Shown here: positions 32,146 to 52,095 of the stretch, piece after piece | Layout of the letters: each line of letters begins with the position of its first letter | Numbering within the stretch: the first letter of the stretch is position 1 | Source of the DNA: Octopus vulgaris | Lineage: Eukaryota | NCBI GenBank assembly: GCA_951406725.2 | Contig: OX597820.1 | Span: 87,110,001-87,174,000 of the forward strand | DNA: 64,000 nt | Direction of reading: 5' to 3' | The notes under the pieces: model-generated | Told to the model about the DNA's origin: nothing | What the model saw: only the letters and a program-made list of their open reading frames with translations | Database searches by the model: none | Position numbers and translations under genes: made by a program

Positions 32146-32296
32146 CAGTTCTATATTTAAGAGATGTACTTTATTTACATTTGACGGATATTTGTCCTCA
32201 TCTTGTTTGTTGTTAACACAACGTTTCGTTTGATATACCCCTCAGCCTTCATCAGATGTCTTGGGAAATTTCGAACCTGGCTTCTCATTCCTAAGA

Positions 32297-43679: not shown

Positions 43680-45077
43680 CCCGAAATACCATATTGTCTC
43701 CCCTTATTAATTGCCAGGAATGTGCTTATCCAGTAAATTTAGTAATATGATACAATTGAATAAACCACTTTACATATTAAACGCATTCCTGGCAATTGGT
43801 ATGTACATATCAATTGCTAGTTAGGACACTATTTCGTTGTGTAGCAGAACATACTAATTATATTAAAGGTTTACAGGATCTTTTCTGTTTGGTTGCCAGC
43901 AGCTGCTAGCGTCATTTTTCTGTTCGAATTGATTTCATATTCAGTGTATTGATACACTTTTATAAGCTAATGAAAGTAATTTTCGCTATAAATCAATAAA
44001 TGAAGAGCTATTATCAATTAAAGTTTGAAAATTTTGGTAATTTTAGCCAATCGTAAGCCACAGACACATTCATGGCTGTTTCGATAGTAAGAACTCTTTT
44101 GTCTCTCAACGTGCCTGTTGTCATAGTCACAAGTGAATCCGAGCAGTCTTTTATTTGTGAGGAAACACGTGTTGACAAAATTGACGCTGTGTTCTGCGTG
44201 ATTATGGCAGCAAGCTCCAGTAACTTCGCTTCTATTATAGAAACACTAAAAACAGAGGAGGATATTTTTAAAATTAAAACTAAAAGTTAAATGTTTGTTT
44301 TTAAGCATATCTAAATTGTAATTCAACATATATAAATTGCATGTTTAATTTTTATTTCTCTTTGTCATTGAGCATTGAGATGGATGTGAAATGTGCTAAA
44401 AATAACAGCTAAATAAGATTTTTTTGGATACATTTTTTAAATTAAAGTCAATTTGCCGACATCTCGCTCAGGGATTTAAAACTAACTCTTTTTTTTTTCA
44501 TTTAAATTAACATGAACATTTATTTACATGAAAGAAAATTACCGGGGTACTTTAATCCAATTCTTCTTAATATTTCTGTTAAAAATTGTAATGTGTTCAT
44601 CGCATGTAACGTGTTGTTTATCGCATTTGCATTAAACACTGGTGGTTGTGAGGTGTGCTAAAAATAACAGCTAAATAAGATTCATTTACGTGAAAGAAAA
44701 TTACCGTAGACATAACAGATGTTGCTTACAAATATCGACAACACGTGCTATTTAGAGGATGTTGACGACAAAATGTGCAGTCACGCACATAAGGACAGCT
44801 TCCAAATCCTGTTTCCTGACTAGGTGAGAATAATCAAACTTTAAGTCTCTATAACTTATTAAAACATTTGTCTGGAATAAAATGAAATAACTCGAACAAT
44901 TCAGTTTTGGCAAGTGTATTATTCTGCCAAATTTTAAAATGTTCGGTGAAATCTAATTTTGGGAGCTGCTGGCTCCAAAATGTGCTTTACTGGTTGCTTA
45001 AATAGCAGAAAAGATTAGATAACAAAATATATTTAAAAATATATATATATAAAAAAAATATAGAAGCATATGTGTAG

Positions 45078-45292: not shown

Positions 45293-45930
45293 AAGGCGGT
45301 GAGCTGGCAGAAACGTTAGCACGCCGGGCGAAATGCGTAGCCGTATTACGTCTGCCGTTACGTTCTGAGTTCAAATTCCGCCGAGGTCGACTTTGCCTTT
45401 CATCCTTTTGGGGGTCGATAAATTAAGTACCAGTTAAGCACTGAGGTCAATGTAGTCGACTTAATCCGTTTGTCTGTCCTTGTTTGTCCTCTCTGTGTTT
45501 AGCCCCTTGTGGGTAGTAAAGAAATAGGTATTTCGTGTCTTTACGTTCTGAATTCAAATTCCACCGAGGTCGACTTTGTCTTTCGGTGTCGGTAAATTAA
45601 GTACCTATTTCTTTACTACCCACAAGGGGCTAAACACAGAGGGGACAAACAAGGACAGACATAGGTATTAAGTCGATTACATCGACCCCAGTACGTAACT
45701 GGTACTTAATTTATCGACCCCGAAAGGATGAAAGGCAAAGTCGACCTCGGCGGAATTTGAACTCAAAACGTAGCGGCAGACGAAATACCGCTAAGCATTT
45801 CGCCCAGCGTGCTAACGTTTCTGCTAGCTCGCTGCCTTGTAAATTAAGTACCACTTGCGTACTGGGGTCGATATGCTCGACTGGACCCCTCCCCCAAATA
45901 TTTCGGGTCTTGTGCCTAGAATAGAAAAGG
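45293..45930. mobile_element. Nested, oppositely oriented SINE family B copies
   Basis: A plus copy from 45293 is interrupted by a minus copy (~45604-45838). gtaaattaagtacc flanks the insertion on both sides. Confidence 0.88.
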
Positions 45931-46126: not shown

Positions 46127-46359
46127 ATACATATTTACACACATGCATACATATACATATACACACACATACATACATATATATTCACATACTTACATAC
46201 ATATGTGTGTGTGCATATATGTTATAAATGTGTGTATGTGGATTATGAATATATAACATTTAAGTTTATAGCTATAGCCAGCAGTGCAAGTTACGACGTT
46301 TTGTATACAAATACGTCTACGTAAGCAATGCGATCGAAGATAGGAAAAATAGGTAATGT

Positions 46360-46402
46360 TTGTATATGCATATTTCTAGAGTTATTGCTCTTTCATCAGC
46401 GC
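46360..46402 (-). ncRNA. Type I hammerhead, copy 1 of a tandem pair
   Basis: Minus strand GCG-CTGATGA-A-AGAG-caataa-CTCT-A-GAAA-TATGCATA-TA. Helix III is palindromic; the 3' strand of stem I has decayed. Confidence 0.75.
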
Positions 46403-46760
46403 TACATTCAACCCAACAAGTATCTACGAACGCGTTGCTTAAATATCCACTAAGTTTAGTAGTGTAATACATTTGGATAAACTACTTTACATATTAAACG
46501 CATTCCTGGCAATTGGTATGTACATATCAATTGCTAGTTAGGGCACTATTTCGTTGTGTAGCATAACATACCAAGTATATTATAGGTTTACAAGTCAATA
46601 TTGTGTCTTACTTTTGAGATAGCAGGGCGAGATTTTCACTTTTGAGTTTAGCTCTAAAGATATTCTATTGACTTCAGGGCCAGGACTGCAAGTTATGACG
46701 TCTCCCATACAAATACGTCTAAGTACATAATGCGATCGAAGATAGATGAATAGGTAAAAG

Positions 46761-46803
46761 GCGTATATGCATATTTCTAGGGTTCTTGCTCTTTCATCAG
46801 CAC
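46761..46803 (-). ncRNA. Type I hammerhead, copy 2 of a tandem pair
   Basis: Minus strand GTG-CTGATGA-A-AGAG-caagaa-CCCT-A-GAAA-TATGCATA-TA-CGC. Confidence 0.75.
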
Positions 46804-47149
46804 TACATCCAATCCATCAACTATCCACGAACGCATTACTTTATATGGAGAGATAAACTTTATAGAGATGAACTTCATAGAGATAAAAGCGAGAACATCG
46901 CCCTGCTAACACAAACGTAAGATAATATTGACTTGTAAATCTTTAATATAATTGGCAGTATATTATGGTTGCAAAATGAAATATTATGTCCTTACAAGCA
47001 ATTAACACACATACACATATATATTAATATGTATATATAGCCGCACATACACATATATACGTACATTGGTAAATATAAATGTGTGTGCATTTGTGTGTGT
47101 ATGTGTGTGTGTGTGCGCGCGTGCGTGTGTGTACGTATAATTTGGTGGT

Positions 47150-49397: not shown

Positions 49398-50662
49398 TGA
49401 GGGGCGTTCAATAAGTAATGCCCCTGACCCACTTGCATGTGCAATTATCTATATCTCTATAGATTAAGTGGCAAATTACAGCTCTGAACTAATTGTGGTT
49501 TCCGATTTACAGGTGTTTGAACTGAGTCAAGTGTGAAATGGAGCATGTTGAGTGTCGAGCAGTGATCCGGTTTTTGTATTTGAAAGGACGCACACCACGG
49601 GAGACTTTTGATGAAATGAAAGTAACTTATGGTGATGATGCCCCATCATATGACCTTGTAAAACGCTGGCATCGTGAATTCAAACATGGTCGGAACTCTG
49701 TGGAAACAGCTCCCAGATCTGGTCGCCCCCTTCTGCCATTGATGAGGCATCTGTCTGTCAAGTTGAGGCTGCCATTTTGGAAGATCGACGCATAACTATT
49801 CGCCAAATAGCCCATGAGGTCAAGATTAGTACCGGGTCTGTGGAAACTATCATTCATGACCATTTGCATATGCAAAAGGTGTCTGCCAGATGGATTCCCA
49901 AGTTGCTCACACCTTTCCAGAAGCAAGAACGCGTCGATTGCTCGAGGATGAATTTGGAGATGTGCCAAGAAGATGAGTCAAAATTTTTCAAAAGTCTGAT
50001 TGCATAGGATAAAACCTGGGTCCATCACTATGATCCAGAGACCAAAGCCCAGTCAATGCAGTGGAAGCACCGTGACTCAACTCCTCCAAAGAAGGCAAGG
50101 GTGCAGCCCTCCGCTGGCAAGGTCATGCTTACAGTCTTCTGGGACCAGGACGGAGTAGTGAAGACAGATTTCTTGGCAAAGGGTACCACAATTACAGGAG
50201 TCTATTATGCTTCACTTTTGAGGAAATTAAGAGAAGCTATCAAAATCAAGAGGCGGGGCAAGACCAGCAAAGGCATCCTCCTCCTGCAGGACAACGCTCC
50301 GATCCACAACTCGCGTGTCGCCAGATCAGAAGCACAGGCGTGCGGCTATGAACTCATCCCCCATTCCCCCTACTCTCCTGACCTTGCACCATCTGATTTT
50401 CACCTCTTCCCAGCCATGAAGTTGTTTTTGAAAGGAAAGCGTTTCCCAGATGATGCAGCCTTGATTTCTGAAGTCAGGTCGTGGTTGGAGGACCAAGCTG
50501 GGGTCTTCTCCAAAAACGGTCTTCAGAGCTGCATCAAACGATGGGAGAAATGCGTAACTCTGGGTAGTTCCTATGTAGAAAAAGACTAATAACTGTTCCA
50601 AGTTTCGTTGCTCTACTTCTATGGGAAGTGGGTCAGGGGAATTACTTATTGAACGCCCCTCG
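49398..50662 (+). mobile_element. Near-complete mariner element (DD34D) with TA target-site duplication
   Basis: 37-bp TIRs (t/c)gaggggcgttcaataagtaat.cccctgacccactt with 2 mismatches; TA on both sides. Confidence 0.97.
49538..50589 (+). pseudogene. Mariner transposase, inactivated
   Basis: MEHVECRAVIRFL..., RWIPKLLT, DKTW, QDNAPIH and YSPDLAPSD with 34-residue D-D spacing. One frameshift near 49730 and an in-frame TAG at 50005-50007. Confidence 0.95.
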
Positions 50663-50972: not shown

Positions 50973-51174
50973 CTAACACCAAGATTTCGTGTTCGATTCC
51001 GGGCAGTGACCTGAATAATGATAACATCGAAAAATACCTTAGGAATGAGAACCCAGGTTCGAAATTTCCCTAAGATACCTGATGAAGGCTGTGTTAAAAA
51101 CAAACAAGATGACGACAAATATCCGTCAAATGTAAATAATATACATAATTCCTCATCTCTTAAATATAGAACTG
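50973..51174 (+). mobile_element. Second tRNA-headed hammerhead element (ribozyme internally deleted)
   Basis: B box gttcgattcc at 50991-51000; body matches 32146-32300. CTGATGA-AGGCT joins directly to GTGTT. Confidence 0.8.
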
Positions 51175-51181
51175 TATTATG

Positions 51182-51248
<67 letters not shown>

Positions 51249-51276
51249 GGAGGAGTAAATAAATAAATAGCTAGCT

Positions 51277-52095
51277 AGGTCACTTCCTGGAATCGAACTC
51301 GGAATCTTGGAGTTAGTAGCGTGGGCAATTATGGAGTGAATTTTAGGGCTTATATATCTAATATTTTCCTATCCTTCCTTAATATCGGTTCCCATATGCT
51401 ATTCATATCTGCACTCGGTCTGCTTAGGAGGTTGTTGTGTCCTAGCATATGGTGTTCTCTGTCTATTATTTTGACTTCCCACAGGGGGATGGGTCTCCAT
51501 TTTTCCACACATGATCAGCTGTACCCGATTTATCAATATCTCCCCGGGTCACAGCTTTGCGATGTTCGTCTACCCTTATTTTGAGGGGCGGCATGTTTCA
51601 CCTTTGTACAACCTACCACAGATGCATTGGATGGAGTACACGCAGTTTTTGGTCATATTTTCTTCTATTGGTGGTTTTACTCGAAGGAGATATTTGCGAA
51701 ATGTTGTATTACTCTTCAATACTGTCCTGATGTCATATGAACCGCATATCTTTGGTATCTTTTCAGAGAGGACTTTCACATAGGTGAGACAGACTGTGGA
51801 CAGTTTATTGGTTTCATCCCATTTTTTCTTTATAATTGGAGTGGATAGTAAGTTTTTGGGGTAGTTGTTGCTTAATAGATTGTTACTGAGCTTGATCATT
51901 TCTTCGTGGTATCACGATCGCTATTTGTATTCTTTGCTCGATATTTTAGGCACTGAGCAATCCCTCTCTTTACACTGTATGGATGGTGGAGTTGAAGCTG
52001 AGGTCCCGTCCACTGAAGGTCGGCTTGCGGTATACGGATGTCTTATACCTTGTCTTATTTTCCTTATACATATCATCTCGTGTGTTCCTTTTCAA
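51277..52095 (-). mobile_element. Penelope/Poseidon-type PLE 3' fragment (RT thumb and GIY-YIG) followed by a tRNA-like segment
   Basis: YKTSVYRKPTFSG; VCLTYVKVLSEKI; NCVYSIQCICGRLYKGETCR; no cysteine linker seen. Downstream gctactaactccaagattccgagttcgattccagg. Confidence 0.9.

Follow-up and report, generated by a model that had tools for sequence, protein, structure and literature searches.

Metazoan non-LTR retrozymes are known from coral, mussel (350-390 bp) and axolotl (PMC7229834; bioRxiv 10.64898/2026.07.22.740005). As presented in the main texts of these sources, they are non-coding, tandem and low in GC, carry one canonical type I hammerhead in each unit, are flanked by target site duplications (TSDs) longer than 4 bp, and give a predicted circle that is strongly self-paired. 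The endonuclease-bearing (EN+) Penelope-like elements (PLEs) possess their own published insertion signature, which consists of an inverted pseudo-LTR (pLTR) arm, a tail of 30-40 bp at one of the ends, and a TSD of 8-10 bp (PMC3846280; PMC8557442). According to the account of the Anolis element PAc, its protein cuts and extends both strands in vitro, initiates at a pair of internal sites delimiting the tail, does not depend on ribozyme cleavage and has a predicted dimeric form (PMC11167929). In the papers cited here, PLEs have been proposed as the mobilisers of retrozymes on three grounds only, namely ribozymes in common, co-occurrence and similarity to pLTRs (PMC7229834; PMC7761336; bioRxiv 10.64898/2026.07.22.740005).

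Here we describe a locus in the genome of Octopus vulgaris that, judged from its sequence, is one insertion, two-armed and decayed, of a 403-nt repeat that is non-coding, carries a type I hammerhead and is of the non-LTR retrozyme type. All of the retrozyme features listed above recur in this unit. Unlike the metazoan retrozymes described in those main texts, it occurs as dispersed short insertions (median below one unit, at most 2.1) rather than as long arrays, it is old and decayed, an A10.1-U11.1 pair replaces the usual G-C, and its insertions have two fixed 3' ends and are two-armed. The main texts of PMC7229834 and bioRxiv 10.64898/2026.07.22.740005 make no mention of two-armed or inverted retrozyme insertions. 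We found no description of fixed ends, of two-armed retrozyme insertions or of an octopus retrozyme in the literature searched, where supplements may list cephalopod retrozymes or end maps.

The comparison with EN+ PLE insertions, as these are described for A. vaga Pen2a (PMC3846280; PMC8557442) and Anolis PAc (PMC11167929), extends to head-to-head arms, an extension on one arm, TSDs some 8-12 bp long, targets rich in AT, ends that lie downstream of the hammerhead and 5' truncation. The unit differs from them in that it has no RT/GIY-YIG ORF, unit follows unit, and its ribozyme is canonical rather than minimal. We consider it probable that a borrowed Penelope-type RT-endonuclease primed both ends of one staggered cut at two fixed sites on the repeat's RNA. 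The offset between these sites, about 117 nt, is threefold the published PLE tail of 30-40 nt, which counts against this explanation. The class of element is known; what is new is the strict two-start footprint on a retrozyme, together with the 117-nt offset.

A two-armed insertion of a hammerhead repeat

The window, by which we mean the whole 64,000-nt stretch of DNA that was analysed, contains the features collected in Table 1. The original prediction for this locus was a tandem 401-nt hammerhead repeat followed by an inverted partial copy. That layout was recovered, with the amendment that the main arm comprises one and a half units rather than two full ones. Its direct repeats (46277-46440 and 46679-46841) share 82% identity across 164 columns, in ungapped pieces spaced 401 and 402, and each holds a minus-strand hammerhead, with CUGAUGA...GAAA cores that start at 46399 and 46800. 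The A before each predicted cut lies at 46363 and 46764, giving the anticipated spacing of 401 nt, and the segment 46529-46643 does return in inverted form at 46885-47003 (93/121 identical, E 5e-21).

Aligned to the family consensus, the main arm runs from +326 to +403, through one full unit, and then from +1 to +126. It reaches its left limit across a 20-nt deletion (between 46278 and 46277), and its 3' end at 46256 coincides with the first of two fixed sites described below, site A (consensus +126). The inverted arm, which begins ahead of the previously noted start at about 46886, is short, is joined to the main arm 5' to 5' (head to head), and has its 3' end at 47005, at fixed site B (consensus +239). 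Automatic scoring had placed this locus in the B+other class after the 20-nt deletion cut its alignment; because pairwise alignment puts its ends at +126 and +239, it is A+B. On this alignment, the inverted partial copy is the short B arm of a family-wide layout. A stutter at the arm junction, in which a 15-mer is repeated, is found in 1/224 loci only, namely this one, and is possibly an RT stutter. No target duplication was scored at the window locus, whose flanks are microsatellite-like.

Table 1. Positions of repeat, ribozyme and Penelope features in the 64,000-nt window
Feature	Position	Strand	Details and basis
Main arm, ~1.5 units of the 403-nt repeat	46256..46841	-	Alignment to family consensus and sequence
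Inverted arm, consensus about +100 to +239	46846..47005	+	Alignment
Monomer between both predicted hammerhead cuts	46363..46763	-	401 nt, non-coding
Downstream type I hammerhead	46345..46420	-	Core segments 46399-46393 and 46376-46373; predicted to cut at 46363/46362
Upstream type I hammerhead	46746..46821	-	Core segments 46800-46794 and 46777-46774; predicted to cut at 46764/46763
15-mer derived from immediately upstream of site A, at arm junction	46849..46887	+	2.6 copies; TRF
Separate unit fragment, consensus about +170 to +330	43703..43877	-	91% identical to 46444-46592
Penelope/Poseidon-type remnant	51020..52040	-	Inverted piece at about 51020-51080

The predicted ribozyme

The consensus ribozyme is a canonical type I hammerhead with a 5-bp stem II closed by A10.1-U11.1, an extended stem I and a predicted cut after AUA. 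Stem I, on whose pairing the original prediction had been staked, pairs in the consensus. Both copies in the window are damaged: the downstream one retains 1/3 of the core-proximal stem I pairs and 4/5 of the stem II pairs, the upstream one 3/3 and 3/5. Across the family, the core columns are 89-96% conserved, N7 excepted, and the stems pair in the consensus; all ten core-proximal pairs are retained in 19/119 ribozymes with an intact core, and in neither window copy. The strongest compensatory pair among all column pairs falls in stem II (A-U 93, G-C 19, p 1e-12). This signal and a second one at 156-226 each mark a single subfamily split rather than repeated events. Covariation over the structure as a whole is weak (243 double changes vs 210 expected) because the copies decayed after insertion. 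No Rfam hammerhead family is among the best 150 of the 227 matches listed for the whole window; likewise, no hammerhead was matched in 46250-47010 at E<=10, or at the gathering score in four well-kept loci.

Helix III consists of two pairs and A15.1-U16.1 beneath a palindromic tetraloop, and as a whole is a 10-nt palindrome. In the energy model its hairpin stands at +3.6 kcal/mol, compared with -9.5 kcal/mol when the palindrome pairs with that of a second copy, values from which dimeric cutting of the hammerhead is predicted. PMC4209133 describes such cutting for most metazoan type I hammerheads, and a small palindromic helix III as the usual state of the canonical ones. The palindromic helix III had been put forward as the mark of a distinct family. 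It does separate the unit from the minimal Penelope hammerhead at position 32255 (minus strand), which is another ribozyme of the Poseidon-type family treated below, while by the account of PMC4209133 it is not an unusual feature. The active monomer fold lies 8 kcal/mol above the minimum in the energy model, which counts against the explanation we prefer.

An old family of 403-nt units

Searching the genome with the window locus gave 2067 first-look candidates, 40 of which were scored, and the first 30 loci yielded a family consensus of 403 nt. The tandem consensus is non-coding, with a longest stop-free frame of 65 aa, and the unit has a GC content of 34%. Folded as a circle, the consensus has an energy of -110 kcal/mol (z -5.9 relative to 60 dinucleotide shuffles), its reverse strand reaches z -4.8, and the window monomer only z -1.3. 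Hallmarks of a retrozyme that are present here are a short (150-450 bp) tandem unit, the absence of coding, GC below 50% and TSDs longer than 4 bp; a strongly self-paired predicted circle is found for the consensus, with the window monomer at the z-score just given. The earlier assignment to the retrozymes is supported by this 403-nt non-coding tandem unit with one type I hammerhead in each. Tandem copies, as anticipated, do occur elsewhere: among 358 arms, 59 exceed one unit and 2 exceed two, the longest measuring 2.12 units. No long tandem arrays were seen among the 224 loci examined, and no LTR layout was seen in any of them.

Several observations speak to the age of the family. Arms of at least 150 nt have a median identity of 81% to the consensus and a maximum of 90% (n=250), the CpG columns have decayed, the genome contains 22 matches to an exact pattern of 35 nt from the ribozyme, all within decayed copies, and no young members were found. 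From these sequences, the 403-nt family is most likely extinct. Sequence words of the stretch occur in sequencing runs labelled with four different organisms, as would be expected of an old insertion; none of the runs listed is given as RNA. A ~400-nt RNA from the window locus is unlikely because there is neither a long tandem array nor a young element. One run, possibly of RNA but maybe of DNA, contains 39 contigs that resemble the family and one of 226 nt that matches the locus exactly; these contigs show no ends or circles. At a single locus (L175) the tandem units have 96% mutual identity and 20 non-consensus letters in common, marking a recent local duplication or conversion inside an old copy.

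Two fixed 3' ends, one of each in inverted pairs

Our counts cover 224 distinct loci of the same genome, collected by eight queries over different parts of the unit together with listed hits; 30 Penelope loci and 3 ORF regions are left out of them. These loci are the best BLAST hits and not a random sample, which counts against the preferred explanation. The family is dispersed over many chromosomes. Two arms joined 5' to 5' make up 88/224 loci, 125/224 are single-armed, and 11/224 fit neither rule.

When 3' ends are numbered in RNA sense from the predicted cut, 142/358 arms end at +100..136 (site A, median 124) and 110/358 at +228..250 (site B, median 241), the median ends lying 117 nt apart. 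Together, windows that span 15% of the unit hold 252/358 of the 3' ends; the 106/358 that end elsewhere, likely through later deletions, count against our explanation. These windows were set on the first 117 loci (129/184 arms within) and held in 107 later loci (123/174 arms within). The 5' ends, by comparison, spread across the unit, with 12/358 at the predicted cut, and in the first set their number there was 6/184 vs 5.9 expected. A cleaved linear monomer as the main template was rejected, as there is no 5' pile-up at the cut. In this respect the unit resembles PAc, for which uncleaved RNA is the main substrate.

The two sites are not combined freely. Inverted loci comprise 48 A+B, 1 A+A, 0 B+B, 18 A+other, 15 B+other and 6 other+other, which means that inverted insertions with both ends at fixed sites have one of each in 48/49 cases (p 9e-14), and in 24/25 among the held-out loci alone (p 8e-7). 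The PLE layout, in which an inverted arm is 5'-truncated and just one end is extended, is found here too (88/224 loci inverted, 48/49 with differing ends). Two loci that are nearly A+A, with an end just outside the site window (L007, 127/143; L019, 149/128), count against our explanation.

Both arms of one locus share a subfamily in 42/46 callable cases (4 discordant vs 14.5 expected, p 2.5e-4), and they have more non-consensus letters in common than arms of other loci do (+1.4, n=69, p 3e-8). The same concordance would arise from subfamilies with different periods of activity, so that one RNA molecule is not implied. In 22/41 simple A+B loci part of the template is covered by both arms (lengths summing to more than 420 nt), 31/41 B arms run past site A, and 13/41 A arms run past site B. 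A single circle as template would need strand displacement, because the arms overlap and mostly run past the other start site. Collision of both cDNAs on one circle is not supported: 5/41 stop near each site, vs 2/34 and 3/51 in single arms, and an early impression of a pile-up near the other start site vanished with more loci. Many arm junctions overlap by a few bases.

Flanking duplications with a score of at least 8 are present in 19/48 A+B loci, compared with 7% of mismatched flank pairs, and measure 8-18 bp (median 12). Three aspects of the target sites count against our explanation, namely that 4/19 of these TSDs lie within microsatellites, that 29/48 A+B loci, the window locus included, have no scored TSD, and that single-armed loci have few (8/85 vs 4.4%). 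The flanks are 72-73% AT, vs 64% for the loci themselves, and contain no poly(A) or simple-repeat tail that belongs to arm ends.

A Penelope family in the same genome

A Penelope remnant in the window (51080-52000, minus strand), in which 51579-51911 comprises a linker and the start of a GIY-YIG domain, led to an abundant family that we take to be of the Penelope/Poseidon type, with an RT-to-endonuclease frame of 569 aa at one locus (L318). Its 3' repeat (loci L143-L172) comprises a tRNA-like stretch with A- and B-box-like motifs, an (AAT)n run and a minimal hammerhead; ARAGORN found no tRNA in four PLE loci. Over 30 loci, members of this family end at +48..60 or +91..96 after the cut of their own minimal hammerhead, giving the classical tail of ~38 nt. 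Of eight loci with both ends, six combine a short and a long end, one is 52/80 and one is long/long.

Like the 403-nt unit, the Poseidon-type family has two end classes and one-of-each inverted pairing and is both old and abundant. Unlike the unit, it encodes RT and GIY-YIG domains, has a minimal hammerhead of other sequence, and ends at about +55 and +95. There is no DNA similarity between the two. The family displays the same footprint as the unit and is not a proven partner; with one Penelope family compared, no partner element was found for the unit, which counts against our explanation. At one locus (L259:327-1402), an A+B two-armed insertion stands next to a Penelope RT remnant, apparently inside or beside it.

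How the insertions may have arisen

A Penelope-type insertion, which had been suggested from the layout of this locus, is supported by the two fixed ends, the presence of one of each in inverted pairs, and the target duplications. The unit itself is likely a non-autonomous passenger of Penelope machinery and not an autonomous PLE, to judge by its sequence and that of its relatives. Priming of both target ends by a borrowed Penelope-type enzyme would proceed as follows. A source copy would be transcribed to multi-unit or circular RNA, as in known retrozymes, in which the hammerhead with its weak palindromic helix III is predicted to cut as a dimer. The presumed enzyme would make a cut staggered by about 12 bp in AT-rich DNA, in keeping with the observed target duplications. 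cDNA synthesis would then begin near +124 from one DNA end and near +241 from the other; the priming is presumed, and the fixed ends and the one-of-each pairing are observed. Both cDNAs would run for variable lengths through uncleaved ribozymes and be joined head to head, which is the geometry observed, after which the copy would decay neutrally, as reflected in the loss of CpG and a divergence of 10-20%.

It is conceivable, if rather doubtful, that one retrozyme RNA circle is clasped by a dimer of the Penelope RT-endonuclease, which would begin a pair of cDNAs at a set structural spacing. Between the start sites, the 117 nt include a rod of 79 nt predicted at +152 to +230 (pair probabilities 0.8-0.99), with one subfamily-level compensatory pair at its base. 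Looping out this rod would leave about 38 nt, the length of the classical Penelope tail, in which case the tail could act as a ruler set by the enzyme together with the RNA fold. If such a reading were true, the 403-nt family would be a natural insertion mutant that reveals the Penelope tail ruler.

Among the alternatives, the one that fares best holds that the unit is the pLTR of a yet-unfound autonomous PLE, the loci being its 5'-truncated copies and the 117-nt offset a long tail. We judge this unlikely. All insertion features match those of PLEs, Xenopus retrozymes are reported to match pLTRs (bioRxiv 10.64898/2026.07.22.740005), and our ORF test used Poseidon-type proteins only. Within that scope, no PLE ORF was found in the pLTR position in 224 loci, and the arrangement that defines autonomous EN+ PLEs in the accounts cited above, an RT and GIY-YIG ORF between pLTRs, was found neither in the unit nor in these loci. 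The Poseidon-type proteins match 1/224 loci, where the RT remains face the arm's 3' end rather than occupy the pLTR position. Moreover, the 125 upstream flanks have no common body, the 59/358 arms longer than one unit join unit to unit with no ORF between, and the ribozyme is canonical and not of the minimal PLE type, all of which speaks against a pLTR.

It is less probable still that insertion was PLE-mediated and the inversion arose by self-priming on the antisense template or by endonuclease resolution of an intermediate, routes put forward earlier to explain the inverted repeats of Penelope (PMC3846280) and the tail (PMC8557442). The junction overlaps of a few bases would suit such a process; the tail ends of PAc, as reported, instead match RT start sites in vitro (PMC11167929). 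In most of our loci, furthermore, the two junction positions correspond to unrelated consensus positions and not to a fold-back point.

Insertions inverted head to head and flanked by TSDs typify L1 twin priming, and LINEs are abundant near the loci. A LINE mechanism would leave one fixed 3' end and a second primer annealed at a chance internal site, and the existence of two fixed sites had already disfavoured it: the second end is fixed and not random. The ends have no poly(A) or simple-repeat tail, and twin priming gives two non-overlapping parts of the template, not the overlapping arms seen in 22/41 loci, which makes this origin very improbable. That a satellite or inverted duplication arose at the DNA level and resembles a ribozyme by chance, already disfavoured, is hardly credible: the lack of an Rfam hammerhead match and a window monomer that folds no better than shuffles speak for it, and dispersal over many chromosomes, fixed 3' and variable 5' ends, TSDs, the folding of the consensus circle and a strongest compensatory pair in stem II speak against it.

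What remains best described as two-site priming by a borrowed Penelope enzyme presents a protein-free element that displays the full Penelope insertion footprint and strictly pairs one end of each kind; an ORF-bearing Penelope family alongside it behaves likewise. The finding bears on which enzyme moves animal retrozymes and on how Penelope elements form inverted, one-tailed insertions. The family's age and the missing partner enzyme limit its value in this regard. To the existing in vitro PLE assay it offers two exact predicted start sites, 117 nt apart.

Other features of the window

The separate fragment of the unit (Table 1) is far closer to the main arm than to other copies (about 77%), and is probably a later local duplication that followed the insertion; it holds a short inverted piece at 43711-43739. 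Nested inverted copies of a common SINE-like repeat, with arms of 121-127 nt that are 91-92% complementary, occupy 45293-45882 and explain a below-threshold MIR2646 match. A Mariner-type transposase remnant (PF01359, E 1e-24) lies on the plus strand at 50008-50589.
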